Source: an uncultured Methanolobus sp.
GTDB lineage: Archaea; Halobacteriota; Methanosarcinia; Methanosarcinales; Methanosarcinaceae
Direction: 5' to 3'
Assembly: GCA_963675495.1 (NCBI GenBank)
Contig: OY776215.1
Location: 544,001-608,000 of the forward strand
DNA length: 64,000 nt
Part shown: positions 37,259 through 62,894 of the stretch, in pieces
Position numbering within the stretch: the stretch's first letter is position 1
Layout: each line of letters starts with the position of its first letter
Made by a program: the position numbers and the translations under genes
The notes under the pieces: model-generated
The model's database searches: none
What the model saw: the letters and a program-made list of their open reading frames with translations, nothing else
What the model was told of the DNA's origin: nothing

Positions 37259-38440
37259 ATGACAAAGAAAGTAGTACTTGCTTATTCAGGCGGGCTTGAC
37301 ACTTCCGTGTGCATCCCGCTGCTTAAAGAGGAATACGGCTACGATGAAGTTATCACAGTAGCGGTAGATGTGGGACAGCCACAGGAAGATGTTAAACAGG
37401 CTGAGGAAAAGGCGCAGAAGATCAGCAACAAGCACTTCACACTCGACGTGCGTGAAGAATTCGTCAACGATTATATCTTCCCGCTAATCAAGGCCAATGG
37501 TGACTATGAAGGATACGTTATGGGCACATCCATCGCACGTCCGCTTATCGCTAAGAAGGTCGTTGAGATAGCAGAGCAGGAAGGAGCTGTTGCACTTGCA
37601 CACGGTTGTACCGGCAAGGGTAATGACCAGCTTCGATTCGAGGCAGTTTTCCGCCTGACCGACATGGATGTCATTGCACCCATGAGGGACATGAACCTCA
37701 CACGTGACTGGGAGATCGAGTATGCACAGAAACATGGCATACCTGTGACCGTCACGGCCGCAAAGCCATGGAGTGTTGACGAGAACATATGGAGCCGCAG
37801 TATAGAGGGTGGCAAGCTGGAAGACCCTGGATTCATTCCCCCTGAGGAGATCTACCAGTGGACCGTTTCCCCTGAAGCAGCTCCTGAAGGCCAGACAATA
37901 GTGATCGGTTTTGAGAACGGTGTCCCTGTCTCACTTGACGGTGAGAAGATGGATGGTGTCGAACTTATCATCAAACTGAACGAACTCGCAGGTTCCCATG
38001 GTGTCGGCAGGACCGATATGATCGAAGACCGTGTTCTGGGACTTAAAGCACGTGAGAATTACGAGCACCCTGCAGCAACAGTTCTCCTTACAGCCCACAG
38101 GGACCTTGAGAAGCTTGTGCTTACCAGGGCAGAGCTGAAATTCAAGAAAACTGTGGACGAACAGTGGTCTGAACTTGCCTACTATGGTCTTGTTGACGAG
38201 CCGCTCTACCACGACCTGAATGCATTTGTTGATAAGACCCAGCAGCGTGTCAGCGGTACTGTTACCGTGAAACTGCACAAGGGTAGTGTCATCATACTTG
38301 CACGTACATCCCCGTATGCTCTGTACTCAGAAGACCTTGTGTCCTTTGACAGTGCGACCATTGACCAGAAGGATGCTGAAGGCTTTGCCAAGTATCACGG
38401 GTTCCAGGCAAGGATGTATAAGAAGGTTATTGAGAAGTGA
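37259..38440 (+). CDS. argG: Argininosuccinate synthase
   Basis: [22 protein letters not shown]. Confidence 0.97.
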
Positions 38441-38698
38441 AGTTAAGATTGTGTGCCGTGGAGCATACAATTTTTTTCTTTTGTTTTCTTTTTTGCATTT
38501 GATTGAGCATTCTGGTTGGTTTCGATGTTTCTTTTGTTTTGGCTTTGATGGAATGTGCCGCCTGCGGCGGGATGGATGACTGTGTGTTGGCTATTTTGCA
38601 AATATATTCTATGAATGTTAGCTGATTCTAAATTCATTGGATATCATGCGTACAGAATCCATATATAGTAAAGAAGCAAATAGAGAATGGGATACTGA

Positions 38699-38923
38699 AT
38701 GATGACAAAATTCACTGCATACATAGAGAGAGACCTTGAAACTGACTGCTATGTCGCCATCGTACCAGGAATTCCAGGGGCTCATACTCAGGCTGATACA
38801 CTTGACGAATTACATGCCAGATTAAAAGAGGTGATAGAACTCTGTCTTGAGGAAATGAATCCGGAAGAAAAAGGGTTGATTCCCGAGTTTGTAGGTGTTT
38901 CACAAATTGAGGTTACCGTATGA
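38699..38923 (+). CDS. hicB: HicB-family antitoxin (short form)
   Basis: YVAIVPGIPGAHTQADTLDEL...LKEVIELCLE. Confidence 0.88.
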   Translation: MMTKFTAYIERDLETDCYVAIVPGIPGAHTQADTLDELHARLKEVIELCLEEMNPEEKGLIPEFVGVSQIEVTV

Positions 38924-39153
38924 GTAAGCTACCGTTGGTAGATGCCAAAAAAATGGAAAAGATATTATATCATCTTGGGTTTGAAAAGGTCAGACAAAAA
39001 GGTAGCCATGCATTTTATAGGCACGCTGATGGCAGAACAACTACTGTTCCTTTTCATTCAAGTAAGAAGCTTGCACGACCTCTCATTAGGGTCATACTTA
39101 GTGAAATTAACATTAACATTGAAAAGTATAATGAATTGATTAGGAATATTTGA
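38920..39153 (+). CDS. hicA: HicA-family mRNase toxin
   Basis: LGFEKVRQKGSH..YRH.DGRTTTVP.H; ATGA overlap with hicB. Confidence 0.9.
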   Translation: MSKLPLVDAKKMEKILYHLGFEKVRQKGSHAFYRHADGRTTTVPFHSSKKLARPLIRVILSEININIEKYNELIRNI

Positions 39154-39339
39154 TTCTTTAATGTTGCTTAGATTCCTTAGTAACTATACATTTATGTGGA
39201 AAAATATTACACATCTAACATATCCAAGCGTGTAGACGAGATTATGAACAAGTTTCATAACTCATGACTATATGTTCATCCACTTGCGGTGGAATGCTGT
39301 TTTCGTGGGATACTCATATGAAAAATCAAAACAAGAGGA

Positions 39340-39474
39340 CTATGGATCCAGTTCGTTCAATAAATCCTCAATCACCGGCTTTGCTTCAGGAATACCTTCT
39401 TTTACACTAAGCCAGACAACTTCAAGATTGACGCCAAAATAAGCGTGTATTAATTTGTCACGAATGCAAATCCC
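39340..39474 (-). pseudogene. HEPN (DUF86) toxin remnant with a 216-bp internal deletion
   Basis: Reads ..IRDKLIHAYFGVNLEVVWLSVKEGIPEAKPVIEDLLNELDP*; lacks the middle present in the paralog at 43810-44159. Confidence 0.85.
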
Positions 39475-39783
39475 TCAGATAGCTTCGACTTCTTTCAGTA
39501 TATATTTACCTATATTTGGCTTCAGTGAATCTTTCATGACAAGGTCAACTTTAACTCCCAGGGAATCGGAAAGATAGTTCTCTAAATGAACAAATCTAAA
39601 AATAGTAGGTGTCCTGCTGAACTCTACCAGTACATCAAGATCACTTTTCGGAGTATTCTCTCCCCGCACATAGGATCCAAACAATCCAATGTAACTGACA
39701 TTATACTCCTTTTTTAGCTGCGGTAGCATTTCATACAGCTGCTTTCTGTATTTTTCAATGTCTTTTTTATGTTGCATGATCAT
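39475..39783 (-). CDS. Minimal nucleotidyltransferase (MNT) antitoxin
   Basis: GLFGSYVRGE..PKSDLDVLV, GVKVDLV. Confidence 0.9.
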   Translation of the reverse strand: MIMQHKKDIEKYRKQLYEMLPQLKKEYNVSYIGLFGSYVRGENTPKSDLDVLVEFSRTPTIFRFVHLENYLSDSLGVKVDLVMKDSLKPNIGKYILKEVEAI

Positions 39784-40091
39784 CCTTAAAAAGGTCTTAT
39801 TTGCATATATGTTAGTTTCATATGTATAATTATTTGTCTTGTTTGGAAAATTAATGAATGTTAAAAAGATTGATCTTTACTTGAAATGTAGTATGCAGTT
39901 CTTGCTTATTATTACTCAACAGTTTGGGAATATGCCGCCTTCGGCGTATGCTTGTATTGGTCTTGTAGGGGAAAACAATCACGAATATATATCCTATGTA
40001 TGACAACCTATATACATAAGTAAGGACAATAAATATTTGATGCCAATATGGCTGATAATCCACATAAGTAAGATAACAGGAGAATAAGCTA

Positions 40092-40235
40092 ATGGCAAAA
40101 CCAATTGAACTTGGGCTGGTGCTGGAAGGTGAAGATGCAAAAGAGTTTTGGGAAAACGAGAGAAAGCCAGCTACAAAACAACAGATAAAAATGTTCAAAG
40201 AAGCCAGGAAAATATCAGATCGTATTCATTTTTAG
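40092..40235 (+). CDS. 47-aa putative antitoxin of the GNAT toxin (below ORF-track cutoff)
   Basis: AGGAGA RBS; MAKPIELGLVLEGEDAKEFWENERKPATKQQIKMFKEARKISDRIHF; ends 14 bp before the GNAT ATG. Confidence 0.75.
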   Translation: MAKPIELGLVLEGEDAKEFWENERKPATKQQIKMFKEARKISDRIHF

Positions 40236-40249
40236 TCCTGTTATTTGGT

Positions 40250-40762
40250 ATGTCTAAGTCTCAATTTTCTATTTCTCCTCTTTCTGAGAGAAACGGTGTT
40301 TTGTCTTTTTGCTGTCAGAACAAGGATCTAAACGACTTTTTAAAAAATGATGCCTTTGGTAATCAGGAACAACTCATAAGCAAAACTTATGTTTGTTATT
40401 ATCAGAAAGATTTTGCGGGGTATTTCACTTTGACCACGGATACTATGAAAGTCAAATATATTGATGATTCAGATTGTGTTGATGGTTTTCCATATTCCAG
40501 ATACCCGGCTGTCAAACTCGCAAGACTTGCCACTGATAAGAGATTTGAAAGGAGAGGAGTTGGCTCTTACATGCTGTTTGCAGCAATAGGTTTAGCTTAA
40601 AGGGTCGCAGATATCACTGGATGCAGATATATTACAGTTGATTCAAAACCCGAATCTATAGGATTTTACACCAAATATGGATTTAAGATCGTTAAGACTT
40701 CTCTTAAAAAAGACTATACCTCCCTATATCTGAACATGCAACCCATAGTAAAAGGCATTTAG
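40250..40762 (+). pseudogene. GNAT acetyltransferase toxin (TacT/AtaT-like) with internal TAA
   Basis: F.C...DLNDFL, GYFTL, YPAVKLARLATD.RF.RRGVG; after TAA 40598-40600 the frame continues RVADITGCRYITVDSKPESIGFYTKYGF. Confidence 0.88.
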
Positions 40763-41093
40763 GCAACTATTTTTCATTATTAAGCAGTGCTTACAAATTT
40801 TGTATGATCTCACAAATATTCTTTTTTGTCTCAAAAAATATCTTCTTGGTTCAAAGGTTTGATTATTTTTAAATTACGATATTACCGAGGATTTTGTCAG
40901 GTACATGACTATTACCCATATATTGCCAATCAGTATTGAATGCATCAGCCATGATAACTTCATTAAATGTGTGATCAATGTCCAATTATTTTATGAATAT
41001 GATAATCAGCAGTACAAGAATGTGCCGCCTGCGGCTTATGGCTGCACAGAATTTAAGAAATATACTCGAAAACTTATACGATAAAATACTAAC

Positions 41094-41400
41094 TCATTTC
41101 AGAAGTTCAATAAACTCCTTGACTGTAAGCCCCGATACCCTGATCAATTGCCTCAGAAGACCTGGTTTTAACTACCTGTGCTTTGGGACGGTCAGTGTTA
41201 TCCTGGAGCCTTCCTTTCTCAATACGACATGACTTCCTACTTGCCTGTGAGGATACCAGCCTGCTTTAGAAAAAGCTTTAATTGTATCCATTCCGAAAAT
41301 AACAGGTAATTTCGGTGTTCGGCTATCACTTCAACGATCTTGCAGGAAGGTCTTGTCATGCAGACATTAGATTCGTCCTCAGCAAGTGATTCAAAACATG
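41094..41400 (-). pseudogene. Decayed hicBA: hicA with lost start and internal TAG, plus hicB C-terminal remnant
   Basis: 41318-41094 reads TPKLPVIFGMDTIKAFSKAGWYPHRQVGSHVVLRKEGSRITLTVPKHR*LKPGLLRQLIRVSGLTVKEFIELLK; upstream CFESLAEDES..CKIVEVIA. Confidence 0.82.
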
Positions 41401-41477
41401 CATGTTTCTGTTTTTTTGTCTATATGTGATAATGCAATGTGCCGCCTGCGGCGTATGGTTGCAGTGAATAAACTACT

Positions 41478-41702
41478 CTATTCTCCAATCCACTCATCTC
41501 TGGATATATGAGCCTGTTTCAGGATTCTCTGCAGCAGATCTACACTAATCCTGCCTTTGTGAGGATTAGGGACTGTCAGAACAATATCTCCTTTTGTCAT
41601 GAAAGAATGTTTGCCACCTGAAAAAGGACCTTCGAATTCCAATTCCCTTAGTCGTTTGACAAGGTTTCGTTGGGTGACAGGAGTCAGCTTAGGCAATAGC
41701 AA
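41478..41702 (-). CDS. hicA: HicA-family toxin
   Basis: FEGPFSGGKHSFM.KG...LTVPNPH...ISVDLLQRILKQA. Confidence 0.88.
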   Translation of the reverse strand: MLLPKLTPVTQRNLVKRLRELEFEGPFSGGKHSFMTKGDIVLTVPNPHKGRISVDLLQRILKQAHISRDEWIGE

Positions 41703-41940
41703 CTTCTCCGGAGTCTTTTATTACATGATTGCCCATAGGTGGAAGGGTTAAGCCTTTTCTGAGTCTGAAAACTATCCATTCATCAATGGTATCTTCAAGG
41801 TTTTTCCTGCACTCTTCAAGAGTACTACCTGTAGCCCACACACCCTCGAGTTCAGGCACCTCGCCATAGTAGGGCTCATCATCTTCAATTATCTCATATC
41901 TGGCTTTCTCAAGAGCTGTCTGGATATATTCAATAAGCAT
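41689..41940 (-). CDS. hicB: HicB-family antitoxin
   Basis: MLIEYIQ.AL..A.YE, YYGEVPELEGVWATG.TLEECR.NL. Confidence 0.88.
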   Translation of the reverse strand: MLIEYIQTALEKARYEIIEDDEPYYGEVPELEGVWATGSTLEECRKNLEDTIDEWIVFRLRKGLTLPPMGNHVIKDSGEVAIA

Positions 41941-42157
41941 AATTGGTACCTGCATAAATTTTGTTCTGTGCTATGTATTCTTAATATAGTTTCATGAGTA
42001 TATGAACAATTTGTTTGATGAGATGTACTGGTTTAAAATTATGTATCCCTTTTTGCTACTCAGCAATATGGAAAAGTGCCGCCTGCGGCGTATGGTTGCA
42101 TATTCCAAAAAAATCATGTCCCATCATTAATTAAAGCAGACTATATGAAGGAGAAAT

Positions 42158-42176
42158 TATTAATATCATATTAATA
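42158..42176. promoter_or_regulatory. Palindrome over the TATA region of the antitoxin gene (candidate autorepression operator)
   Basis: TATTAATAT-C-ATATTAATA, 18 bp upstream of ATG 42195; AT-rich, so only modestly significant. Confidence 0.4.
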
Positions 42177-42194
42177 CCATGTTATTATGATACT

Positions 42195-42434
42195 ATGGTT
42201 AAAGCAATAATTAATATTGATGACAAGACCAACCGGGTGCTGAACATAGTTAAAGCCAAGTATGGCCTGAAAGATAAGAGCTCGGCTATTGAACTTGTAA
42301 CAAAACAATATGAAGAGGAACTCCTGGAGCCAAAGCTTAGACCTGAATATATAGAAAAGGCTAAAAGGATAATGGCCCAGGACGCAGTGGACGTAGGTAC
42401 AGTAGACAACTTGAGGGAAAGATTGGGTATCTGA
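42195..42434 (+). CDS. Putative antitoxin (DUF2683-like)
   Basis: MVKAIINIDDKTNRVLNIVKAKYGLKDKS.AI...EPKLRPEY; directly upstream of a RelE-like gene. Confidence 0.8.
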   Translation: MVKAIINIDDKTNRVLNIVKAKYGLKDKSSAIELVTKQYEEELLEPKLRPEYIEKAKRIMAQDAVDVGTVDNLRERLGI

Positions 42435-42435
42435 A

Positions 42436-42699
42436 ATGTATTATTTGAAGATCGAACCTGATCTTGAGAAAACACTTAAAAAACTGGCTAAGAAGAATAA
42501 GAAACAATTAGGGATGATTCTCAGTAAAGCTGAAGAAATTGTTGAAAATCCCCATAGATACAAAAATCTAAGGGCACCACTGAATATGTGGAAGAGAGTA
42601 CACATAGACAGACATTTCGTATTGGTTTTTTCGGTGGATGAGGAAAGCAATAGTGTCACACTTGAAGACTATGCCCATCACAATGACATCTACAAATAA
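42436..42699 (+). CDS. RelE/YafQ-superfamily toxin
   Basis: NPHRYKNLRAPL..WKRVHI...FVLVF...YAHHNDIY. Confidence 0.85.
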   Translation: MYYLKIEPDLEKTLKKLAKKNKKQLGMILSKAEEIVENPHRYKNLRAPLNMWKRVHIDRHFVLVFSVDEESNSVTLEDYAHHNDIYK

Positions 42700-42914
42700 G
42701 ATTGTCAGTATTTGAGTAGCCGGGAATTGGCAGAACTCTAATATTTTTGTGAGTTTTTGATAGTTACTTCTCAGCAATATGGAAAAGTGCCGCCTGCGGC
42801 GTATGGTTGAACTACGTAAAATACCACCTATTTAAAATCGATTTCATTTTGAAATATCCTGCATGAAATTTAATAAGAATGATAACATATGTATGTGCAT
42901 TGAGATGTGATATT

Positions 42915-43205
42915 ATGGTGGAAATGCAGATCGAGAAATACAAAAAAACCATAATCCCGATATTGCTAAAAAATGATGTGGATGAAGCAGGCATTTTTGG
43001 TTCGTTTGCAAGAAATGAAGCAAAATTGGATAGTGACATCGATATTCTTGTTCATTTCAAGGACCGAAAAAGTCTATTTGATCTTGCCAGATTAGAACTG
43101 GAACTCGAAAAGGAAGCTCAAAGAAAGGTAGAAGTCATTACTTACGATTCCATAAATCCCCTTATAAGGAATCGAATCCTGAAGGAAGAAGTGAAGATAT
43201 TATGA
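42915..43205 (+). CDS. MNT antitoxin
   Basis: GIFGSFARNE...DSDIDILV. Confidence 0.9.
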   Translation: MVEMQIEKYKKTIIPILLKNDVDEAGIFGSFARNEAKLDSDIDILVHFKDRKSLFDLARLELELEKEAQRKVEVITYDSINPLIRNRILKEEVKIL

Positions 43206-43546
43206 AAGATGATGAAGTGTTCATTGAACATATTATTGATTCTATCGAGAAGATAGAGTACTTCACAAACGATAAGAAAAAAGATGATTTTCTGGAAGAT
43301 GTGCAACTTCAGGACGCAACGATAAGGAGAATAGAGATTATCGGTGAAGCATCAAAAAACATCTCCGATGATCTCAAAGGACAACATCCAGATGCCCCAT
43401 GGAGTGAAATGGCAAGAACGAGGGACAAATTGATACACGGTTACTTTGGAGTAGACCTTGGACTTACATGGGACATTATTGAACATGATCTGCCTGAACT
43501 CAAGACTAAAATGAAACAAATACTTGATGAAATTAAGTATAAGTAA
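43202..43546 (+). CDS. HEPN (DUF86) RNase toxin, intact
   Basis: QDATIRRIEIIGEA, PW, RDKLIHGYFGVD (RX4H). Confidence 0.9.
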   Translation: MKDDEVFIEHIIDSIEKIEYFTNDKKKDDFLEDVQLQDATIRRIEIIGEASKNISDDLKGQHPDAPWSEMARTRDKLIHGYFGVDLGLTWDIIEHDLPELKTKMKQILDEIKYK

Positions 43547-43809
43547 GGAGATGGAGCTATTCCATGATTCTTCTTTGCGTGTTCATCCACTTGCAGCAGG
43601 AGAAGTTAGTCTGAGTGAGATCGAAGCTGAGAACTGCTAAAGATCTCTTTGATATTTCTACTGGGAAGTATTGCTTTTGATTTAAAATATTATAACAAAT
43701 TATTGTTTTCGCTCCTTAGCAGCTCAGCAAAATGCCGCCTGCGGCGGGTGGTTGTTTTCTAGAGATAAACAAAAACAAGAAAAACCTTGAAAACTACAAA
43801 AAAATAGAA

Positions 43810-44159
43810 TTATGGAGGTAATTCGTTCAGCAGGTTCTCGATCACCGGCTTTGATTCCGGAATACCCTTTTTTACACTGAGCCAGACAACTTCAAGATTA
43901 ACACCAAAATAAGCATGTATCAGTTGTCCCGGATGCCTGCCAGATCCTTCCATGGAACTGAGGTGTATGTTTGCCTTATATCATCAGGAATGTTCTTTGC
44001 TGCTTCACCGATTATTTCCAGAACCCTTATAACAGCATACTGGGTTTTGACATCTTCGAGAAAATCCTCAAAGGTGCATTGATCCACAAAGCTCTCAGCT
44101 GCTTCCATGGAATTGTATATGTCCTGTACATAATCTCTTACGTCACGAATGCAGATCCC
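43810..44159 (-). pseudogene. HEPN (DUF86) toxin with a 1-bp frameshift at the RX4H motif
   Basis: IRDVRDYVQDI..VIRVLEIIGEAAK..PWKDLAGIRD, then GAC AA CTG ATA CAT GCT TAT TTT GGT (LIHAYFG) in the shifted frame. Confidence 0.88.
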
Positions 44160-44471
44160 TCAGAGAACTTCTACTTCATTCAGTATGTATTTGCCTATGT
44201 TTGGTTTCAGCGCATCCTTCATGACAAGGTCTACTTTTACCCCCAGAGAATCGGAAAGATAGTTCTCTAAGTGAACAAATCTGAAAATCGTATGTGTCCT
44301 GCTAAATTCTACCAATACATCAAGATCACTTTTCGGAGTATTCTCTCCCCGTACATAGGAACCGAACAATCCTATATAACTGATATTATACTCCCTTTTT
44401 AGCCGCGGTAGCATCTCATGGAGCTGTTTTCTGTATTCTTCTACGTCTTTTTTGTGTTGTATGGGTATCAT
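44160..44471 (-). CDS. MNT antitoxin (close paralog of 39475-39783)
   Basis: GLFGSYVRGENTPKSDLDVLVEFSRT identical in both copies. Confidence 0.9.
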   Translation of the reverse strand: MIPIQHKKDVEEYRKQLHEMLPRLKREYNISYIGLFGSYVRGENTPKSDLDVLVEFSRTHTIFRFVHLENYLSDSLGVKVDLVMKDALKPNIGKYILNEVEVL

Positions 44472-45085
44472 TTAAACGGTCTTATTTGCTTTATATGTTT
44501 GTTTCATATGTATAATTGTTTGTCCTGTTTGGAGAAACAAATGAATTTTAAAAAGATTGATCTTTACCTGAAATATAGCATGTACTTCTTGCTTTTTACT
44601 ACTCAACATGAGAGTGCTGCTTGTAGGATCAAGACTGAAAATTGCTGAAGATCTCTTTGAAGTCTGTATTAGAAAGTGTTGCTTCAGATTAGATATTAGG
44701 CTGGAAATGTAGGATCGTTACCTGATCGATTTTTGTTTTAGATATTTTATGCCTCTTCTTTTATTTTACTAGGCAGCAGTATAGGAACGTGCCGCCTGCG
44801 GCGTATGGTTATGTTGGTCTTGAACACTTAGTTCGGTTACTTTGCTAGTTAGTATCAAGGAAACTTTTGTTTTTAAAACTATAAAAGTGCCTTCAAACCC
44901 CAGTTAAATAGCCTTTTTACTACGCTGATCCACCTAACAGGCCATCAAAATCTCAGTTCATATCAATTATTTTTATCTTTATCCTAAACAGTCACTAGTG
45001 ATCGAATTATATTTTTTTGAAGAAGAAAAACAAAACGAACATTTTATAAAAGTGTTCTGTCTTTTCCTGCAACGAGGAGTATCAT

Positions 45086-46168
45086 TTGTCAGAAAAACAA
45101 GAACCCTGTTACGTAAAAAGATCATTTTACAATGAAGATATCCATTATGGGATACATTCCAGGAAGACGTACACAAGCTCACCTCAGGATGCTAAACCGG
45201 ATAATACCCTCGAGCTTCCAACATTTATCCCGAATGCACCCATGAGAGTATACTTTGACCCGACATACCGATGTAACCTCAGATGCAGACATTGCATTAC
45301 TTCCTCATCACCTGACATACAAGCTGAAAATGAACTGGACATCCTGCAGATAAAGAAACTCCTGAACGAACTGGAATCCATCGGGGTACTGGAGCTGGCC
45401 ATCACCGGAGGAGAACCGTTCATACATAAGGATATCTTTGAGATAATCGAATTCGTGCAGGATGGCAACATGAACCTGAGCATTACAAGCAACGGAACAC
45501 TACTAAGCCCGGAAAAAGCAAAAAAGCTTTCTGAGCTGGATGTATCCGATATAAGGATCAGCCTGGATGGTTGTGAGAGTGTGAACGATGACATCAGAGG
45601 CGATGGCTCATACAAAAAAGCCATGACAGGACTCAGAAACCTGATACAGGCAAATGTCCCAGCCACCGTAAGAATGACACTCACCAGTAAGACTCACGAA
45701 GGACTCGAACACCTATTCCATGACCTGCAGGACGTAGGAGTTACAAAACTCAAAGCCGCCATCATCAAGGAAGCAGGTAACGCCACCCTGGAAGAGAACT
45801 CAGACCTCTTCGGCTACCAACCCACAGAAGATGCTGTTCAAAGCTTAATGAAACTCGGAGAAGAAAATAACATATCTGTGGAACTGTCAAGCGAGGATTT
45901 TAATCTTGAACCTGAGCAATCAGGAGACAAAAGATTAAGAGCTGCTGAACACCATACATGCGGAGCAGGACATGAAACAGCCTACATCTCACCAATTGGC
46001 AATGTATTACCCTGCTCATCCATGCCCCACGTGATTTTAGGAAACATAGGAAATGACAGTTTCACAGATGTCTGGGAAGGTCGAGTTACAAAGAAATACA
46101 AGACTTTAGCTCGCCTTTCTGAAGAAAAAGCGATGTGCAAGGCAAATTTTGTAAAACTCTGGCTATAG
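45086..46168 (+). CDS. Radical SAM protein with twitch/partial SPASM domain
   Basis: CNLRCRHC, TGGEP, SLDG, CGAG....ISP.GNV.PC, LGNI..DSF..VW; GAGGAG RBS before TTG. Confidence 0.88.
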   Translation: MSEKQEPCYVKRSFYNEDIHYGIHSRKTYTSSPQDAKPDNTLELPTFIPNAPMRVYFDPTYRCNLRCRHCITSSSPDIQAENELDILQIKKLLNELESIGVLELAITGGEPFIHKDIFEIIEFVQDGNMNLSITSNGTLLSPEKAKKLSELDVSDIRISLDGCESVNDDIRGDGSYKKAMTGLRNLIQANVPATVRMTLTSKTHEGLEHLFHDLQDVGVTKLKAAIIKEAGNATLEENSDLFGYQPTEDAVQSLMKLGEENNISVELSSEDFNLEPEQSGDKRLRAAEHHTCGAGHETAYISPIGNVLPCSSMPHVILGNIGNDSFTDVWEGRVTKKYKTLARLSEEKAMCKANFVKLWL

Positions 46169-46373
46169 TCTGATATTGCAATCGAACAATTCCCAGAAAA
46201 GATGGAAGTAGAATCACCCATCTAATCCCCATACTAATATATATGTACATACATTATTTTGTGCTAATTTCACAAAACTTAAATATGTATAGATTGTTTA
46301 CTGTACCCATTGGCGTACATATAAACAGGCATATCTGGAATGCCTGAATAAAAACATTTGGGTGGATTAAAAA

Positions 46374-47336
46374 ATGGTGGATCACAATAGTTTATCTGAA
46401 AGTAACATACTCGTTACCGGTGGAGCCGGATTTATAGGCAGCCATGTAGTTGACAGGCTTCTGGACATGGGAAACAAGGTAACGGTCTTTGACGATCTGA
46501 GTTCTGGAAGAATGGATTTTATCGATCAACATCTTGACAACCCCAATTTTAATCTCATAAAAGGCGACTTACTTAACACTACAGAAATAGAAGCAGCCTG
46601 CAAGAACATGGATCTCGTTTTCCACATTGCTGCAAACCCCGACGTAAGACTTGGCGCAACAGACACAAAAGTACACTTCGACCAGAACATCACAGCCACA
46701 TACAACCTCCTTGAAGCCATGCGCAAAAGCGGGGTAAAGAACCTGGCCTTCACATCAACATCCACCATCTACGGAGAAGCCACGATAATTCCGACACCTG
46801 AAGATTACGGACCCCTGGTACCAATCTCACTCTACGGCGCATCCAAACTAGCCTGCGAAGCCCTGATCACATCCTACTCCCACACCTTCGACATGCATTC
46901 CTGGATCTTCCGCTTCGCCAACATAATCGGCGACAGAGGCACCCACGGGATCATAGTTGATTTCATAGAGAAACTAAAAAAGAATTCTGCTGAGCTGGAA
47001 ATCCTAGGCGATGGAAAACAATCAAAATCATACCTGCATGTAAGGGAGTGTGTGGATGCTATGATGTTCTCTGTATCTAATAGTAATGACGAGGTAAACA
47101 TCTTCAACATCGGCTCAGAAGATGCGACCAATCCCACCCGTATCGGTGAGATCATAGTCGAGGAAATGAATCTTCAGAATGTTCAGTTCAACTATACCGG
47201 CGGTTCCCGTGGCTGGAAAGGTGATGTGCCAGTAATGATGCTGGGAATCGATAAATTGAAGGAAATGGGCTGGAAGAATGAGTGGGAGTCTGAGAGGAGC
47301 GTTAGGGAGACTGCAAAGGCATTGCTTGGGATGTAG
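46374..47336 (+). CDS. NAD-dependent sugar epimerase (UDP-glucose 4-epimerase-like)
   Basis: TGGAGFIGSH, YGASK, GWKGDV. Confidence 0.9.
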   Translation: MVDHNSLSESNILVTGGAGFIGSHVVDRLLDMGNKVTVFDDLSSGRMDFIDQHLDNPNFNLIKGDLLNTTEIEAACKNMDLVFHIAANPDVRLGATDTKVHFDQNITATYNLLEAMRKSGVKNLAFTSTSTIYGEATIIPTPEDYGPLVPISLYGASKLACEALITSYSHTFDMHSWIFRFANIIGDRGTHGIIVDFIEKLKKNSAELEILGDGKQSKSYLHVRECVDAMMFSVSNSNDEVNIFNIGSEDATNPTRIGEIIVEEMNLQNVQFNYTGGSRGWKGDVPVMMLGIDKLKEMGWKNEWESERSVRETAKALLGM

Positions 47337-47377
47337 AATGATGTTAGTTTCCTCGAGAATTACTCAAAAGGTGGACT

Positions 47378-47965
47378 ATGTTGCTTATTGAGTTGCTAGT
47401 TATGTTAAGTGGTGGTCTTTTTAATTTAAAAGAAAAATGTAGTGAAACAAATATCTTGCCATTACGCTACATATTTTTATTATTATATGTCTCATACCTA
47501 AAAGCAAATGGTAGTTTTATTGGGTATAAATCACAGTTCAAAAGTCCCCCTATCTTCCCCCATGGCATAAATGGAATATTTATTTCGGGAGATGCGAAAA
47601 TAGGATCTGAAAACGTCATATTCCAGAACGTGACTATTGGCTCTAATACTCTACCGCATTCTAAAGGTTTAGGAGCACCCATTGTTGGAGACAATTGCTA
47701 CATAGGGACAGGTGCTGTTATAATAAGTGGTATAAAAATTGGAAACAATTGCAGAATAGGTGCAAATGCTACAGTCGTTCAAGATATTCCTGATAATTCT
47801 TTAGTAGTTTCCCCAAAGTCTGTAGTTATAAAAAAAGAGCAGTTGATGAATAATGCCTTTTTCACAAAAAAGAATGGTAAATGGGGATGCTTTAAAGACG
47901 GTTCATTTTCTGAAGAACGTGATACTTTTGTTGTAGAACAGTTAAATGATGCTTTTTATAAATGA
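47378..47965 (+). CDS. Hexapeptide-repeat O-acetyltransferase (SAT-like)
   Basis: PHG..GIFI, FQNVTIG, GAP.VGDNCYIG, IGANA.V..DIP. Confidence 0.8.
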   Translation: MLLIELLVMLSGGLFNLKEKCSETNILPLRYIFLLLYVSYLKANGSFIGYKSQFKSPPIFPHGINGIFISGDAKIGSENVIFQNVTIGSNTLPHSKGLGAPIVGDNCYIGTGAVIISGIKIGNNCRIGANATVVQDIPDNSLVVSPKSVVIKKEQLMNNAFFTKKNGKWGCFKDGSFSEERDTFVVEQLNDAFYK

Positions 47966-48041
47966 TGATTTGTACAGGTCTAAATTCTGATAATGAAATT
48001 TTAATTGGATCTATAAAAAAAGTTGTACGTTGGTGAAATAA

Positions 48042-48626
48042 ATGAACAATAAAGAGTTAAGATCACTATGGCTATCTGATCTCTATAGATATTCAGGAGA
48101 TAGTACATTAAAGTCATTTGTCAAATGCATACTCTTTGTTCCAGGTTTTAGATATTCATTTTTTATGAGATTATGCAGTACATTAAACACTAGAAAAAGT
48201 TCATTTTTTGTTATTTTGTGTATAATATTTAGAGTATTTTTGGTGCATTATGAAGTAAAATATGGTATTTCTATTCCATATAATACAAAAATAGGAAAAG
48301 GATTTTACATAGGCCATTTTGGAACTATTGTAATTAATCCAAAAGCAGTAATTGGAAACAATTGTAACATAAGTCAAGGAGTTACAATTGGAGTTTCAAA
48401 TAGGGGTGAAAAGAAAGGCTGTCCTTCGATTGGAAATAATGTTTTCATTGGTCCTGGGGCCAAAATATTTGGTTCAATAAAAATCGGAAACAATGTTGCT
48501 ATAGGTGCGAATTGCGTGGTTACAAAAGATGTACCTGATTATGCAGTTGTTGTTGGAGCTCCAGGAAAAGTAATTTCATATAAAGGTTCGATGAGCTATG
48601 TAAACCACACGGATTATTCTATGTGA
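48042..48626 (+). CDS. Hexapeptide-repeat O-acetyltransferase (SAT/WcaB-like)
   Basis: IGKGFYIGH, QGVTIG, P.IGNNVFIGPGA, VVGAPG. Confidence 0.85.
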   Translation: MNNKELRSLWLSDLYRYSGDSTLKSFVKCILFVPGFRYSFFMRLCSTLNTRKSSFFVILCIIFRVFLVHYEVKYGISIPYNTKIGKGFYIGHFGTIVINPKAVIGNNCNISQGVTIGVSNRGEKKGCPSIGNNVFIGPGAKIFGSIKIGNNVAIGANCVVTKDVPDYAVVVGAPGKVISYKGSMSYVNHTDYSM

Positions 48627-48764
48627 TTTATAATCATAAATAATCAAATTATACCACAAAACTACAAAAATAGTAATGTATGAACCCTAACACTACAAAA
48701 TGAAAAGAAAGCAAAACAGAGTAAATGACATGACCATCTTCTAAACATCAGTAGGATTATTATT

Positions 48765-49316
48765 ATGAAAGTAGCTAAAACAAAAATCAAAGATCTCTAC
48801 ATAGTAGAACCAGATGTTTTCGGTGATGAAAGAGGCTATTTTTTCGAGAGTTACACCAAGAAGAAACTCGACAGCTTAATTGATGAAAATTATGTCTTTG
48901 TCCAGGACAATGAATCCAGATCATCCTATGGAGTTCTCCGTGGGTTGCACTATCAATTAGCACCATACAGCCAGACAAAACTTGTCCGTGTTATACAGGG
49001 TACAGTGTATGATGTAGCTGTGGACCTGCGTAAAGAATCACCAACATTCGGTGAATGGGATGGAGTAGAACTCTCAGAAGAGAACAAAAAACAGTTCATG
49101 ATTCCAAAGGGATTTGCTCATGGGTTCGTGGTTTTGAGCGAGACTGCTGTTTTTGGCTACAAATGTGATGAATATTACAATCCTGAAGCTGAGAGGGGCA
49201 TTGTTTTCGATGATCCTGAACTTGGCATTGACTGGAAAATTGACATTGATGATCTCATAGTAGCTGAAAAAGACCGAGAATGGCCTGTGATGGCTGAAGC
49301 TGAAATGAACTTTTAG
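48765..49316 (+). CDS. rfbC: dTDP-4-dehydrorhamnose 3,5-epimerase
   Basis: DERGYFFE, VQDNES, LRGLHYQ, PKGFAHGF. Confidence 0.95.
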   Translation: MKVAKTKIKDLYIVEPDVFGDERGYFFESYTKKKLDSLIDENYVFVQDNESRSSYGVLRGLHYQLAPYSQTKLVRVIQGTVYDVAVDLRKESPTFGEWDGVELSEENKKQFMIPKGFAHGFVVLSETAVFGYKCDEYYNPEAERGIVFDDPELGIDWKIDIDDLIVAEKDREWPVMAEAEMNF

Positions 49317-49318
49317 GT

Positions 49319-50278
49319 GTGGGAAAAATGAAATTATTAGTAACAGGTGGAGCCGGATTCATAGGAAGCAATTTCATAAGGATGATGTTTGCAAAATATC
49401 CCGGAATTGAAATTGTCAATCTTGACAAGCTCACATACGCAGGCAATCTCGAAAGTCTGAAGGATATCTCAGAAACAGGATACAATTTCGTTCAGGGTGA
49501 TATATGTAATCCTGATGTTGTCATGAATGCAATGGAAGATGTGGACACGGTATTACACTTCGCAGCCGAGAGCCATGTGGATCGCTCAATCGATGACAGT
49601 TCCGTTTTTGTCATGACCAATGTAGTTGGAACAAACAACCTCCTCAAATGTGCCATGGATTCCGATGTAAAGCAGTTCATCCATGTTTCTACCGATGAGG
49701 TCTATGGAAGTACCAATGATGATTCTTTCTGTGAAATTAACAATCTGAACCCATCAAGCCCTTATTCGTCAAGCAAGGCAGGTTCTGACCTCTTAGCATT
49801 ATCATATCACAACACATACGGACTTCCTGTAACTGTGACCCGTTGCACGAACAATTTTGGTCCTTACCAGTTCCCTGAAAAACTTATTCCCCTTTTCATT
49901 ACAAACCTTATGGAAGGCAAGCAAGTCCCGGTATATGGCACCGGCCTGAACGTCAGGGACTGGATACACGTTGAAGATCACTGCTCAGGAATCGAATTTG
50001 TCAGAGAACACGGCAAAGCCGGAGAAATATACAATATCGGCGGCGGCAACGAACTCACAAACCTTGAGATCACCCACAGGATCCTCAAAGCCCTTGGAAA
50101 AGATGAATCCATGATCCGCTACGTAGCGGACAGAAAAGGACATGATTTCCGCTATTCCCTTGACTGCAACAAGCTAATGAAAATGGGCTGGAAACCTGCA
50201 TACGACTTTGATTCAGCACTTGACCAGACTATTCAATGGTATATTGATAACAGATGGTGGTGGGAACCATTAAAGTAG
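49319..50278 (+). CDS. rfbB: dTDP-glucose 4,6-dehydratase
   Basis: DKLTYAGN, AAESHVDRSI, STDEVYG, PYSSSK. Confidence 0.95.
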   Translation: MGKMKLLVTGGAGFIGSNFIRMMFAKYPGIEIVNLDKLTYAGNLESLKDISETGYNFVQGDICNPDVVMNAMEDVDTVLHFAAESHVDRSIDDSSVFVMTNVVGTNNLLKCAMDSDVKQFIHVSTDEVYGSTNDDSFCEINNLNPSSPYSSSKAGSDLLALSYHNTYGLPVTVTRCTNNFGPYQFPEKLIPLFITNLMEGKQVPVYGTGLNVRDWIHVEDHCSGIEFVREHGKAGEIYNIGGGNELTNLEITHRILKALGKDESMIRYVADRKGHDFRYSLDCNKLMKMGWKPAYDFDSALDQTIQWYIDNRWWWEPLK

Positions 50279-51063
50279 TGATTCTGGGTGCAGGTGGGAT
50301 GCTGGGTTCTGATCTCTGTGAAGTATTCTCTGATGCTATACAGTTCACACACAAAGAGCTGGACATAACCAACAGAGAGCTTGTGATTAATGCAATCAGA
50401 GAGAACAAGCCTGATGTGGTGATCAACGCTGCTGCTTACACAAACGTAGATCAGGCAGAAGACGAGCAGGAACTGGCGTTTGCTGTGAATGGATATGCAC
50501 CTGGCTATATCGCAGAAGCATGTTCAAATGTTGGTGCAAAGCTCATCCACTACAGTACCGACTACGTTTTTGACGGTACAAAGCAGGAATACATCGAATC
50601 CGACAAAACTAACCCCATTAATGCCTATGGCAGATCAAAGCTACTTGGGGAGCAGGAGATTGCCAGATGCACTGACAATTACATGATCATACGTACTTCC
50701 TGGCTTTTCGGAAAACACGGAAAGAACTTCATTGATACAATGCTGAGACTTTCTCCTCAGGTGGATAATGTAAGGGTAGTGAATGACCAGTTCGGTAAAC
50801 CCACATATACTGCAGATCTGGCATGCAAGACAGCAGAGATAATATATTTGGAGCCAGGAATTTATCACATCACCAACGATGGTACATGCTCATGGTACGA
50901 GTTTGCATCAGCAGCAATAGACAACACATCACCCTGTGCCAGTGAAGAATATCCCACCAAAGCAAAACGCCCTCAATACTCAATTTTAACTAACACCAAA
51001 ATAACTCCAATGAAACATTGGAAAGAAGCCCTAAACGATTACATAAAGGAGTGGAAAAAATGA
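50254..51063 (+). CDS. rfbD: dTDP-4-dehydrorhamnose reductase
   Basis: GAGGMLG, AAYTNVD, STDYVFDG, YGRSK. Confidence 0.95.
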   Translation: MVVGTIKVVILGAGGMLGSDLCEVFSDAIQFTHKELDITNRELVINAIRENKPDVVINAAAYTNVDQAEDEQELAFAVNGYAPGYIAEACSNVGAKLIHYSTDYVFDGTKQEYIESDKTNPINAYGRSKLLGEQEIARCTDNYMIIRTSWLFGKHGKNFIDTMLRLSPQVDNVRVVNDQFGKPTYTADLACKTAEIIYLEPGIYHITNDGTCSWYEFASAAIDNTSPCASEEYPTKAKRPQYSILTNTKITPMKHWKEALNDYIKEWKK

Positions 51064-51770
51064 AAGGAATAATACTTGCAGGTGGTACAGGCAGCCGTCT
51101 CTATCCCCTTACAAAGGTCACAAACAAACACCTTTTGCCAGTTTATGATAAGCCCATGATATACTATCCTCTGCAGACCCTCATAGATGCAGACATCAAG
51201 GATATTATGATTGTTTCAGGTCGGGGACACGCAGGTCACTTCTTGGAACTACTAGGCTCTGGAGCAGATTTTGGTGTGAAGTTCACCTACGAGATTCAGG
51301 ATGAAGCTGGTGGTATTGCTCAGGCACTTAGCCTTGCTGAGGACTTTGCTGACGATGATAACGTAACTGTGATTCTTGGCGATAATATCTTCCAGGACAA
51401 CATAAAGAAAGCAGTTCAGGAATTTGAGATGGGTGCTCATATTTTCCTGAAGCCTGTGACTGATGCTCATAGATTTGGTGTTGCTGAAGTTGATACTAAC
51501 AACGGATCTGTTTTAGGTATTGAAGAGAAACCTATTAATCCAAAATCTAATCTTGCAGTGACAGGGTTGTATATATATTCAAATGATGTCTTTGAAGTTG
51601 TGAAAACTCTCAAACCATCTGGCCGTGGTGAATTGGAGATTACAGATGTCAACAATGACTATATTCGGAAGGATGCGATGAAGTTCTCGATGATGGATGG
51701 TTATTGGAGTGATGCAGGTACATTTGAAAGCTTGATGAGAGCATCATTAATGATTGAAAGCAATAGATAG
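51060..51770 (+). CDS. rfbA: Glucose-1-phosphate thymidylyltransferase (short form)
   Basis: KGIILAGGTGSRL.PLT, KHLLPVYDKPMI, RGELEITD. Confidence 0.92.
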   Translation: MKGIILAGGTGSRLYPLTKVTNKHLLPVYDKPMIYYPLQTLIDADIKDIMIVSGRGHAGHFLELLGSGADFGVKFTYEIQDEAGGIAQALSLAEDFADDDNVTVILGDNIFQDNIKKAVQEFEMGAHIFLKPVTDAHRFGVAEVDTNNGSVLGIEEKPINPKSNLAVTGLYIYSNDVFEVVKTLKPSGRGELEITDVNNDYIRKDAMKFSMMDGYWSDAGTFESLMRASLMIESNR

Positions 51771-51794
51771 TTAAAAGCACAATGGGGAAACTGA

Positions 51795-53225
51795 TTGAAT
51801 ACAATTCGAAGAATTGCTAAAAACACTTTGGTATTATTAATATCTAAAGTCACTATTATTTTCTTTGGATTTTTTTATACTATCTATGCAGCTCGATACC
51901 TCGGAGTCGAAGGGTTTGGAGTATTGAGCTTTGCAATTGCTTTTACTGGAATAATAGTCCTTTTGGCAGATATTGGAATCAAGAACTTGACCATCAGAGA
52001 AATAGCACGTGATAAAACTCAAGCTGCTAAATATCTTGGAAATATTTCTATATTAAAATTGCTTTTAGTTTTAGTAACATTTTTTGTTGTGATTGTAGTT
52101 TCAAATTTTCTTGGCTATCCTCATCAAACAACAATGGTTATCTACATAATTACTGCTTCTTTTGTTTTGAGGAGCTTTTCAGAAATGTTTTACTCTATTT
52201 TTCAAGCATTTGAAAAAATGGAATATGCATCATTGGGAGGAATTTTGGATTCCATTTTAATGTTTTTTGGTGTGTTAATTGCAATAAAGCTAAATTTAGA
52301 AATAGTAACATTTGTAACAATTTATTTAATAACAAGTATCATTACTTTATTATACAGCAGTTTTATTTGCATCCACAAGTTTGCAATTCCACAAATTGAA
52401 GTAAATCTTGCTTTTTGGAAGCAACTTCTTGAAGAATCAATACCATTTTGGTTAACAAGCGTTTTTATAATAATATATTTTAGAATCGACATGGTGATGC
52501 TATCAGTATTGAAAAATGATATGGTTGTTGGATGGTATGCTGCACCTTATAGACTTGTAGATAGTCTAAGTCTGCTTCCAAGTCTAATCATGGCTGTAAT
52601 GTATCCTCTTTTTTCGAAGTATTATATTAATTCAACTGAATCACTTAATTTAGCTTTTCAAAAATCACTAAAAATCTTGATTATTATTGCATTACCAATT
52701 GGACTTGGAACCACTTTATTGGCAAAAGAAATAATATTATTGATATATGGGAGTGATTATTTCGAATCTATAATTGCTCTTCAGGTTCTTGCTTGGGCAG
52801 GTGTATTGGGAATTATTAACTTTACTCCAGCTACTTTGCTAAATTCAATCAATAAGCAAAGACCTCTCATGATTTTTACATTCATTGGAGCAACAGTAAA
52901 TATTATATTAAATTTTTTATTAATACCAACAATGAGTTATGTGGGTGCTGGAATTGCAACAATAATCACAGAATTTATTGTGGGAGTGCTTATATTATAT
53001 GAAGTTTATAGATTTCAGCCGGAATCTCTTATTGATGCACCTATAACAATTGCTAAATCAGTTACAGCAACTATTTTCATGGGTTTTTTCATATTTGCCT
53101 TTAAGCAATATACTATATTATTATTAATACCACTGGCAGCAATTTTGTATTTTATTTTGTTGTTTATGCTAAAAATACTTAGGAAAGATGAATATATTTT
53201 AGTAAAACAAATATTTAAAAAGTAA
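51795..53225 (+). CDS. Wzx-type oligosaccharide flippase
   Basis: ARYLG.EGFG, RIDMVML, VGWY.A.YR; about 12-14 TM. Confidence 0.9.
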   Translation: MNTIRRIAKNTLVLLISKVTIIFFGFFYTIYAARYLGVEGFGVLSFAIAFTGIIVLLADIGIKNLTIREIARDKTQAAKYLGNISILKLLLVLVTFFVVIVVSNFLGYPHQTTMVIYIITASFVLRSFSEMFYSIFQAFEKMEYASLGGILDSILMFFGVLIAIKLNLEIVTFVTIYLITSIITLLYSSFICIHKFAIPQIEVNLAFWKQLLEESIPFWLTSVFIIIYFRIDMVMLSVLKNDMVVGWYAAPYRLVDSLSLLPSLIMAVMYPLFSKYYINSTESLNLAFQKSLKILIIIALPIGLGTTLLAKEIILLIYGSDYFESIIALQVLAWAGVLGIINFTPATLLNSINKQRPLMIFTFIGATVNIILNFLLIPTMSYVGAGIATIITEFIVGVLILYEVYRFQPESLIDAPITIAKSVTATIFMGFFIFAFKQYTILLLIPLAAILYFILLFMLKILRKDEYILVKQIFKK

Positions 53226-53471
53226 ATTTTAAATGGATTATCCAAAAGTTGTTATTAGTATTAGCATGGAAAAGAAGATACGATTGAAAATCTTTAATTT
53301 TCAAAACATGTTACTTATTTAAACTATGAGATTAAGTAATTGACAATATGTCCACATATGGGTTAGTTGAATGCTTACAGAATTAAGATATGGATATACA
53401 ACTAATAGTAAATAAAGAAAAAATAGGATATTCAGAAGGTATTAATGTTCGCAAATTGAAAGCATTTAAAA

Positions 53472-55074: not shown

Positions 55075-55217
55075 TTAAAAATAATACAGATTATGTAATG
55101 GTTCTAAACAATGACACGTTTGTTGGTTCCAATTTTTTAGTAGAATTATTTAATATTGCAGAATCGGATTCAAAAATCGAAGTGTTGGTTCGAAAACCCA
55201 TTAGGCAGATTCAATTA

Positions 55218-56279
55218 TTATATTAAATCCACATCTTCAAGCATTCTTTGGACACGATTGACATACGTATGATCCCTATAAACTCTTTTTTGTCCCCTTT
55301 TAGCAATTTTTTCCCTTTCATCTCCATTTTCAATATAGTAATTAATTTTATCGAACAATTCTTTTTCAGTACTATAGCATTCGATTTCTGTTCCAATTTC
55401 AAATAAATCATTCAAACTCGCTTTATAGTCTATCAATTCAAATCCTCCTGAACCTAATATCTCAAAAGTTCTTGGATTTAAACCTTCAAGAGATTGAGAG
55501 TGATGCATATTTAAACATATTTTAGATTGATTATAAATGTTGTTTATTCGATTATAATCTATATCATAATTATTAATTTTAGATGATAATTTTTGTGTTT
55601 TTACTTTATAATTATAGTACGATAAAGGATTATACCAAGTCCAACATCTTGACCATATTTGCAAATTAAGATTCTCATTTAGAGAGCAAACATTATCCAA
55701 TAATTCTTTTCTGGCAGGATATAAATTGCCAATAAAAGAAATGTCAATAGATTGCTCTATATCTCCCTTAAGTTTGAAATAGCAATCTGGATCATATGCC
55801 ATTGGAAGAACCTTTGCTTCAACTTTATATTTCTTCAATTTACTAACATCTGAAGGTTCAAAAGTATAAAAATAGTCATATAGTTTAGCGCTGTTAAGTA
55901 TATTCTTATATCGAAAGGGACTATCATAGCACCAAATAACATGAGGAGATGAAGTTATACTTTTTATAGATTTTACTGTTTCTGGAAATAAAATATCTCC
56001 CCTTAATGTTAATATCAAATCAGGTTCAATTTTTTTTATTTGTTCAATTAGTTTCTTATTAAAATCGATAATTTCATTTCTCATAAATTTGTTCAATCGA
56101 TCAGTTTCATCCATTTTCATATGAAGAATCTGGGAAACAAAAGACTTCCATCTATAACCAACAGCAGAATACAAATCAGGCCAATCTAATAATTCAGTAG
56201 TATCTGCAAAACTATCTATTGCTTTAGTAATCATAGAATTATATGTATAAAATATAGGACCATTCACTAATATTTTCAT
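55218..56279 (-). CDS. CgeB-like glycosyltransferase (GT-B)
   Basis: DISFIG..YP.R, SKICLN.H, NPRTFE....GGF, HTYVNR. Confidence 0.82.
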   Translation of the reverse strand: MKILVNGPIFYTYNSMITKAIDSFADTTELLDWPDLYSAVGYRWKSFVSQILHMKMDETDRLNKFMRNEIIDFNKKLIEQIKKIEPDLILTLRGDILFPETVKSIKSITSSPHVIWCYDSPFRYKNILNSAKLYDYFYTFEPSDVSKLKKYKVEAKVLPMAYDPDCYFKLKGDIEQSIDISFIGNLYPARKELLDNVCSLNENLNLQIWSRCWTWYNPLSYYNYKVKTQKLSSKINNYDIDYNRINNIYNQSKICLNMHHSQSLEGLNPRTFEILGSGGFELIDYKASLNDLFEIGTEIECYSTEKELFDKINYYIENGDEREKIAKRGQKRVYRDHTYVNRVQRMLEDVDLI

Positions 56280-56288
56280 AATCTACCC

Positions 56289-58148: not shown

Positions 58149-58163
58149 TATTATAGCACATTG

Positions 58164-59330: not shown

Positions 59331-59339
59331 AAACTGAAT

Positions 59340-62882: not shown

Positions 62883-62894
62883 CCACCCTGATTA

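Follow-up and report, generated by a model that had tools for sequence, protein, structure and literature searches.

Sedentary chromosomal integrons, such as the Vibrio superintegron with its Vibrio cholerae repeats (VCR/attC sites), and clusters of attC sites lacking an integrase (CALINs) are the described systems that come closest to the locus considered here: small cassettes, often toxin–antitoxin (TA) modules, are set between co-oriented short repeats, cassette order varies among relatives, and arrays occur without an adjacent integrase. Integrons and CALINs have been reported also from Archaea (PMC9668308). The present locus lies in a 64,000-nt stretch of DNA (the window; contig OY776215.1, positions 544,001 to 608,000) from the complete 2.87-Mb genome of an uncultured Methanolobus sp., in which eight TA-type modules occupy the interval between argG and a radical SAM gene and are separated by copies of one short repeat (the motif), all facing the same way. 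An earlier note on this DNA had described the arrangement and proposed an archaeal gene-capture or shuffling system whose unit runs from repeat to repeat, with a recombinase acting in trans. Here, the array is confirmed, as is its integron-like layout. Tentatively, and as a preferred reading that may well prove wrong, such arrays are taken to owe their assembly and reshuffling to recombination between copies of the motif, with anchor copies of MITE (miniature inverted-repeat transposable element) origin as the starting point. Genome coordinates refer to the window's own complete genome (G000); other genomes compared are designated by G-numbers and fetched loci by L-numbers, and X-numbers denote sets of contigs.

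A search for the motif core TGCCGCCTGCGGCG, with up to two mismatches permitted, returned eight copies in the window, 8/8 on the + strand, copies 2 and 3 (39933 and 41023) having one mismatch each; the chance expectation is 0.04 copies, and 0/100 shuffles gave eight. No further copy at this threshold was found in the 64-kb window outside 38556–44790. Conservation around the 14-nt core extends ~25 nt leftward and ~12 nt rightward, giving a motif of ~50 nt in all. The copies are as follows.

38531..38581 (core 38556–38569), + strand: motif copy 1, the putative anchor copy, 116 nt past the argG stop codon; matches positions 192–274 of the MITE model
39908..39958 (core 39933–39946), + strand: motif copy 2, a TTCG loop variant
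40998..41048 (core 41023–41036), + strand: motif copy 3
41415..41465 (core 41440–41453), + strand: motif copy 4
42052..42102 (core 42077–42090), + strand: motif copy 5, with an exact 40-mer in common with copy 6
42763..42813 (core 42788–42801), + strand: motif copy 6
43708..43758 (core 43733–43746), + strand: motif copy 7
44765..44815 (core 44790–44803), + strand: motif copy 8, the right array end; homology to the G059 array begins at 44790

The 40-mer quoted in the earlier note is thus common to copies 5 and 6 alone, and brackets the sixth module (cassette 6) as an exact 40-nt direct repeat. Eight of the eleven sites that had been claimed are these plain copies; the remaining three (39277, 43584 and 44614) are not, and are described below with the genes.

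When the complete genome was searched with a 51-nt profile, 19 good matches were obtained, comprising the eight of the window array (+), six in a second array (−) and five elsewhere. The second array (genome 608786–616009; loci L010–L014) starts 786 nt past the window end, holds 6–7 copies all on the − strand, and carries ParE/RelB pieces, a DUF234 ATPase, an acylphosphatase-domain gene and two AAA_14–DUF4143 ATPases. Together, the two arrays bracket, in convergent orientation, a variable surface-glycan cluster of ~20 kb (genome 589067–609233; window 45067–64000 onward). Adjacent copies no more than 3 kb apart in this genome have the same orientation in 12 cases and opposite orientation in none. 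A replication-strand cause of this polarity was considered and rejected: the cumulative GC-skew extremes fall near 1.76 and 2.86 Mb, away from the island, and dispersed copies near the island are of mixed strand, which also counts against such a cause.

Loci in related genomes, which were fetched for holding cassette homologues, showed the same polarity. Co-oriented motif copies per locus numbered 7/7, 5/5, 7/7, 5/5, 5/5, 6/6, 8/8 and 4/4, adjacent pairs within 3 kb were of the same orientation in 23 instances and opposite in one, and the polarity of motif relative to cassette was as in the window in 23/23 pairs. The cassette homologues have 73–93% nucleotide identity and their order differs (5, 6, 8, 1, 4 in G074, an arrangement repeated in metagenome locus L102), whereas an identical module order in relatives had been named in the earlier note as a finding that would tell against its proposal. 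The argG gene was found in 36/36 genomes of the genus, and directly after it lie a full MITE unit in G088 (past the terminator) and the motif in G090 and G063. Genomes G090 and G065 share the layout of argG, right-pointing array, glycan cluster and left-pointing array, with differing glycan genes in that position. Metagenome contigs contributed six loci, none from a near-identical strain. The cassette-like layout, shuffled order and fixed polarity thereby bear out part of the proposal of a repeat-to-repeat shuffling unit; the implied specificity of the motif for cassettes does not stand, for reasons given below.

Breakpoints lying on the motif or adjacent to it were seen for two differences between strains or species, as the earlier note had anticipated. 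The first is in X6, a 31.7-kb metagenome contig in which the argG flank is ~95% identical to the window (102 differences in 2067 nt). Homology ends right at 38569, where the core of copy 1 ends (0 nt from the core); 1940 other letters follow, and from 41468, 14 nt beyond core 4, the contig again matches the window with one difference in 621 nt. Cassette 5 is 99.8% identical to that of the window, cassettes 6 and 7 show 0–8 differences (98.5–100% identity), and a diverged copy of cassette 6 comes after cassette 7. By estimate, chance would place a breakpoint no more than 15 nt from the 3' end of a core in ~2% of cases. The second difference concerns G082, the closest relative (ArgG 98.7% identical), which in the second array has a single motif where G000 has a motif, 6.4 kb with five modules, and a motif; the 3' flank of the single motif matches at 20/25 nt, and the other endpoint lies no more than ~80 nt from a motif. 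At the window array the argG flank of G082 is common up to 38487, after which 5.4 kb of unrelated genes precede renewed homology at 44873–45066; the genome then jumps from 45066 to genome 609233, the 20-kb glycan cluster being absent. Several further joints were set aside: X5 joints 38570>39928 and 38570>44773, which run motif-to-motif with sides of only 21–22 nt, were treated as unreliable, as were the short-sided X5 joints 40203>40838 and 42038>45011 and X6 joint 41461>44775. Stretches left uncovered in X5 and X6 were given no weight.

The motif family was surveyed in 177 Methanosarcinaceae genomes with the 14-mer at no more than one mismatch, control motifs giving 0–1 match per genome. The 14-mer stood well above the controls in two genera, being present in 32/35 other genomes of the window's genus (1–104 copies each) and in 10/10 genomes of the sister genus g16 (3–189 copies). 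The exact extended 22-mer gave 28 matches, 27 of them in Methanolobus or Methanosarcinaceae, and no match in viral contigs; when the array was compared with the PLSDB plasmids, a single 166-nt RelE/ParE match was returned (Methanothermococcus plasmid), unconnected with the repeat. Across 146 distinct copies from the two genera the 14-nt core is near-invariant while the flanks drift. The motif is the near-invariant core (~50 nt) of a family of repeats that Methanolobus shares with one sister genus. In G088, ~100 dispersed copies, 57 forward and 47 reverse, lie inside a conserved ~320-nt unit with two GC-rich hairpins. Full units occur in several named species; loci L016–L035 and L103–L130 represent G088 and other Methanolobus genomes, and a unit copy is present also in the window's own genome at 1471471–1471689. 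The unit copies are 72–86% identical (40/170 candidates scored) and form an old, diverged family. Alignment revealed, by eye, GGATTTCTACAGAG-type end and internal repeats, and a hairpin followed by a T-run. Copies of the MITE type favour gene 3' ends, 20/42 lying between convergent and 5/42 between divergent genes, with the upstream gene co-oriented in 30/42; in G174 the core is found in outward-facing inverted pairs, 183–300 nt apart. In sister genomes the motif occurs mostly inside this MITE-like unit, which lodges in gene 3' intergenic DNA. Array copies match the ~50-nt core of the ~320-nt unit only, without the unit's ends. A coding frame with seemingly synonymous differences among the window copies was also considered, and was dropped since the MITE copies have stop codons in that frame. 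The motif, confined to this array within the window, is not specific to cassettes, given the dispersed copies in G088, the inverted pairs in G174 and the 5/19 own-genome copies outside arrays; genome-wide scatter, which had been put forward as an observation contrary to gene capture, is indeed seen in sister genomes. A literature search, covering titles and abstract openings, found no description of the repeat or the arrays.

Under the preferred reading, that of recombination between motif copies, those copies that stand beside conserved flanking genes, one after argG and one after a YdjM-like membrane-protein gene, would act as anchors. Segments of DNA carrying a copy of the motif would recombine with a resident copy and integrate, and segments would be lost or exchanged through recombination between two direct copies. 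What is inserted would be AAA ATPase genes and TA modules that are small and self-contained, many of these inserts decaying afterwards, and the enzyme could feasibly be either the host recombination machinery working on a short repeat or an unrecognised site-specific recombinase. Since integration at a resident copy leaves co-oriented copies on each side, this process would explain why polarity is uniform within arrays and why each type of cassette keeps one polarity with respect to the motif; integration from anchors would similarly explain why two arrays point inward around the glycan cluster. The polarity and breakpoint data both fit integration at a resident copy. A stronger version, that of a Methanolobus gene-capture system analogous but unrelated to integrons, in which a recombinase uses the ~50-nt MITE-seeded site to insert, excise and swap TA and ATPase cassettes at anchors to either side of the glycan locus, is considered unlikely.

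A number of observations weigh against assembly by recombination at the motif. Beyond copies 5 and 6, exact identity in the other 27/28 copy pairs extends over 8–25 nt only, a short stretch by the standard of ordinary homologous recombination. Profile searches turned up no recombinase dedicated to the motif: Y1_Tnp (PF01797), Resolvase, DEDD_Tnp_IS110 and Cas1 each had 0 matches in the complete genome. The largest indel relative to G082, that of the 20-kb glycan cluster, breaks at TTTCCTGC-type microhomology with no motif. The syntenic DUF234 ATPase has motif flanks in G063 and none in G072 and G082; gain or loss of the motif around a syntenic gene indicates that copies can arrive without cassettes. 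No motif was present within 250 nt of 25/45 cassette matches (at least 200 nt) in relatives; cassettes 6 and 3 abut in G080 with a 24-nt spacer and no motif, and G068 has paired modules without any motif. Circular or excised forms were not seen among the contigs, and no backward joint was seen in X1 or X4. Related genomes are not independent, and the orientation counts therefore overstate the support. At ~75% identity between species, alignments do not show exactly where cassettes end. Finally, the motif is dispersed, moves alone and is missing at many junctions, which makes a passive selfish repeat a serious rival.

The genes of the island and its flanks are listed below; four of the eight modules between argG and the radical SAM/SPASM gene are damaged.

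37259..38440, + strand: argG (argininosuccinate synthase), the conserved left flank; Pfam Arginosuc_synth and Arginosuc_syn_C
38699..39153, + strand: cassette 1, HicB-like antitoxin (38699–38923) and HicA toxin (38920–39153); Pfam HicB_lk_antitox E 8e-8, HicA_toxin E 3e-17
39233..39289, + strand: remnant of a zinc-ribbon (MqsA/YgiT-like) antitoxin gene, previously taken as a variant motif at 39277; nhmmer, profile positions 2–58
39327..39783, − strand: cassette 2, MNT nucleotidyltransferase (39475–39783) and truncated HepT remnant (39327–39455, 129 nt); Pfam NTP_transf_2
40092..40762, + strand: cassette 3, 47-aa open reading frame (ORF) and GNAT acetyltransferase with an in-frame TAA at 40598–40600; Pfam Acetyltransf_10/7/1, TAA read as X
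41100..41294, − strand: cassette 4, HicA pseudogene that lacks a start codon and an intact HicB and is interrupted by an in-frame TAG; Pfam HicA_toxin E 1e-16, TAG as X
41478..41955, − strand: cassette 5, HicA (41478–41702) and HicB/UPF0150 (41689–41955); Pfam
42195..42699, + strand: cassette 6, DUF2683 (42195–42434) and ParE/RelE-like toxin (42436–42699); Pfam
42879..43546, + strand: cassette 7, MNT (42879–43205) and HepT (43202–43546); Pfam
43540..43640, + strand: 3' remnant (~last 100 nt) of a zinc-ribbon antitoxin gene, previously taken as a variant motif at 43584; nhmmer E 2e-25
43813..44471, − strand: cassette 8, HepT over two frames (43813–43953 and 43920–44108) and MNT (44160–44471); Pfam HepT-like on both pieces, NTP_transf_2
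44609..44648, + strand: degenerate site, previously given as 44614; a repeat 75% identical to 43619–43682, with no nhmmer match
45086..46168, + strand: radical SAM/SPASM gene, first in the glycan cluster between the arrays; Pfam

Assignment of the modules to type II TA families (HicAB, MNT–HepT, RelE/ParE and GNAT) is given by Pfam domains in adjacent small genes; the matches of the cassette 6 ParE/RelE toxin fall below the curated Pfam cut-offs, and the 47-aa ORF that partners GNAT in cassette 3 matched no Pfam family. Cassette 2 is a paralogue of cassette 8, with repeats 81–88% identical to 43797–44441, and cassette 3 has a 93%-identical copy in G080. The TAG in cassette 4 stands at the position of a Glu residue in homologues, and the gene was treated as a pseudogene; the lineage is able to decode TAG as pyrrolysine.

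The intact zinc-ribbon antitoxin gene of relatives encodes an 87-aa protein; in L049, where the homologue is intact, Pfam MqsA_antitoxin matches only weakly, short of the cut-off (E 9e-4). A 15-nt exact repeat ties the remnant at 39233–39289 to 43580–43594, and site 39277 is probably the gene cut at profile position 58, followed by sequence resembling the right half of the motif. Site 44614 is ambiguous between a decayed motif and the decayed end of a zinc-ribbon gene. Either recombination with a look-alike sequence or joining at microhomology could have produced both sites. In L037 (3400–3772; G059), a HepT N-terminal part is joined in frame to a zinc-ribbon antitoxin C-terminal part at GEA/GET microhomology, and this chimera illustrates how illegitimate deletion can act within such arrays.

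As to the flanks, a hairpin and T-run at 38445–38475, directly past the argG stop codon, are kept in G082, G090, G088 and G066, and look like argG's own 3' end signal, distinct from the motif. The glycan cluster contains radical SAM, epimerase, dTDP-sugar (by ORF similarity), flippase-like and glycosyltransferase genes, together with a gene for a 475-aa DDE_Tnp_1 (IS4-like) transposase (53532–54959, +); an 81-nt stretch just 3' of the latter recurs in a metagenome contig (L101).

Of the competing explanations, the one that survives best is that the motif is a passive selfish repeat, a MITE-like or repetitive extragenic palindromic (REP)-like element that inserts alone, for which TA islands are merely tolerant spacers while the cassettes are assembled by illegitimate recombination and horizontal transfer. 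Such a repeat is possible, if rather unlikely, as the whole explanation of the arrays. It would account for the scattered, diverged ~320-nt units of G088 and for full units in several species, for the presence and absence of the motif around the syntenic ATPase and for the motif-free TA clusters of G068 and G080; microhomology junctions, moreover, are common in the island, and a HepT–zinc-ribbon fusion is present in L037. However, the polarity of the arrays (12/0 and 23/1) is left unexplained when dispersed copies in G088 lie on either strand (57 and 47), as is the 23/0 polarity of cassette to motif. Nor does it fit that array copies consist of the ~50-nt core without the rest of the unit, that the X6 breakpoints fall at motif edges, or that 3/8 array copies lie in divergent regions as against 5/42 of the MITE-type copies.

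The earlier proposal of dedicated gene capture, in which a site-specific recombinase encoded elsewhere recognises the ~50-nt hairpin and excises and integrates cassettes, integron-analogous but unrelated, is judged decidedly unlikely. The near-invariance of the core over the two genera while its flanks drift suggests recognition by a protein, the stretches that copies have exactly in common are too short for homologous recombination to be efficient, the X6 breakpoints lie 0–14 nt from the core's 3' edge, and sites 39277 and 44614 could be recombination products with the zinc-ribbon gene look-alike. Against this, no enzyme emerged. Y1 transposases, serine recombinases, IS110-type transposases, Cas1 and IntI are all missing from the complete genome, so that neither the recombinase supposed to act in trans nor the suggested co-occurring HUH (Y1/RAYT) gene gained a candidate. 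Tyrosine recombinases are absent from the window, in agreement with the earlier statement that there is no local integrase, and the six matches elsewhere in the genome include none nearer than genome 498886–499206. Among the six are four tyrosine recombinase paralogues with a C-terminal CxxC...CxxC zinc ribbon (genome 248324–249535, 483545–485002, 862250–863419 and 2353437–2354573). A survey for this family, with one of the four paralogues as query, placed it in 106/177 genomes, including motif-free Methanosarcina (41/59), and did not find it at E 1e-40 in the array-rich G065, G074 and G086; it was rejected as the motif's enzyme for want of a phyletic link to the motif. Moreover, the stem is just 4–5 bp, without extended dyad symmetry, and many cassette junctions have no site.

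Functional punctuation, whereby a hairpin kept by selection would serve the host or the TA modules by stabilising RNA 3' ends, by terminating transcription or by insulating adjacent operons, appears quite improbable. The preference of MITE-type copies for gene 3' ends, the T-run after the hairpin in the MITE unit and the conservation of the core in an old, diverged family are consistent with such a role. Conversely, a T-run after the motif is not consistent among the array copies, whose gene contexts were read as three divergent, two convergent and three tandem; with 3/8 copies between divergent genes, promoter regions are not avoided by array copies. A palindromic stem works either way, so co-orientation is not predicted. 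Folding of the motif copies is unremarkable (z −2.5 to +0.9), Rfam gave 0 matches at E ≤1 for the array and five G088 loci, and RNAalifold on 22 units returned a covariation term of −0.06 with 1/20 pairs compensated, that is, no covariation for a larger fold beyond invariant pairs.

An integron remnant, that is, a CALIN, would share the co-oriented sites between small TA-rich cassettes but is refuted to the point of negligible probability, as the earlier note had held, by the absence of RYYYAAC..GTTRRRY pairs in 38441–45085 (0, versus a mean of 1.7 in 200 shuffles) and of IntI in the complete genome (TIGR02249, best score 39 bits versus a cut-off of 265; 0 pass), and is further opposed by a ~50-nt motif with a 4–5 bp stem in place of a 57–141-nt imperfect palindrome and by cassettes that point either way.

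If recombination at the repeat does assemble the arrays, Archaea would have a second and independent means of capturing genes as cassettes, one in which the capture site is spread around the genome by a dispersed mobile repeat and in which TA and ATPase cassettes are tied to a hypervariable surface-glycan locus. The idea lends itself to direct testing in Methanolobus strains that can be cultured, and public data include strain variants. Should the repeat be passive and MITE- or REP-like, it would still be a long-lived family of repeats, not previously described, in a genus of methanogens, within otherwise ordinary island biology.

The likeness to integrons and CALINs set out at the beginning is offset by the lack of attC ends, of a long imperfect palindrome and of IntI, by cassettes on either strand, and by a repeat that is also dispersed in MITE-like fashion and missing from many junctions. 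REP sequences, their composites (bacterial interspersed mosaic elements, BIMEs) and the REPIN doublets mobilised with REP-associated tyrosine transposases (RAYTs) resemble the motif to some extent, in being short, GC-rich extragenic palindromes in tens to ~190 copies, and in forming an old, diverged family with a conserved core, a gene 3' preference and inverted doublets (in G174). The motif differs in that no RAYT/Y1 gene was found in G000, G087 or G174 (the last 83% complete), the sole complete Y1 gene in G088 being flanked by different hairpins of its own; there is no GTAG or CGTC tag, and the window copies are all direct. Nor are REP sequences known to form co-oriented arrays in which each gene module has one copy. 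MITEs with internal hairpins are represented by the Correia, ERIC and RUP types, which the ~320-nt unit broadly recalls in its length, conserved blocks, end repeats (seen by eye), intergenic position and multiple copies; window copies are only the internal ~50-nt core without unit ends, and no target-site duplication or parent insertion sequence was identified. Palindrome-associated transposable elements (PATEs) derived from insertion sequences of the IS200/IS605 group are similar in having direct-oriented hairpins that bracket cargo, so that tandem growth is conceivable, but the genome has no TnpA (Y1) and a conserved cleavage tetranucleotide was not identified. TA and defence islands, lastly, share the clustering of HicAB, MNT–HepT, RelE/ParE and GNAT modules and AAA ATPases, many of them decayed, beside a variable surface-glycan cluster; what sets the present arrays apart from such islands is their regular punctuation by one polar repeat, and the recurrence of the same architecture in several species.

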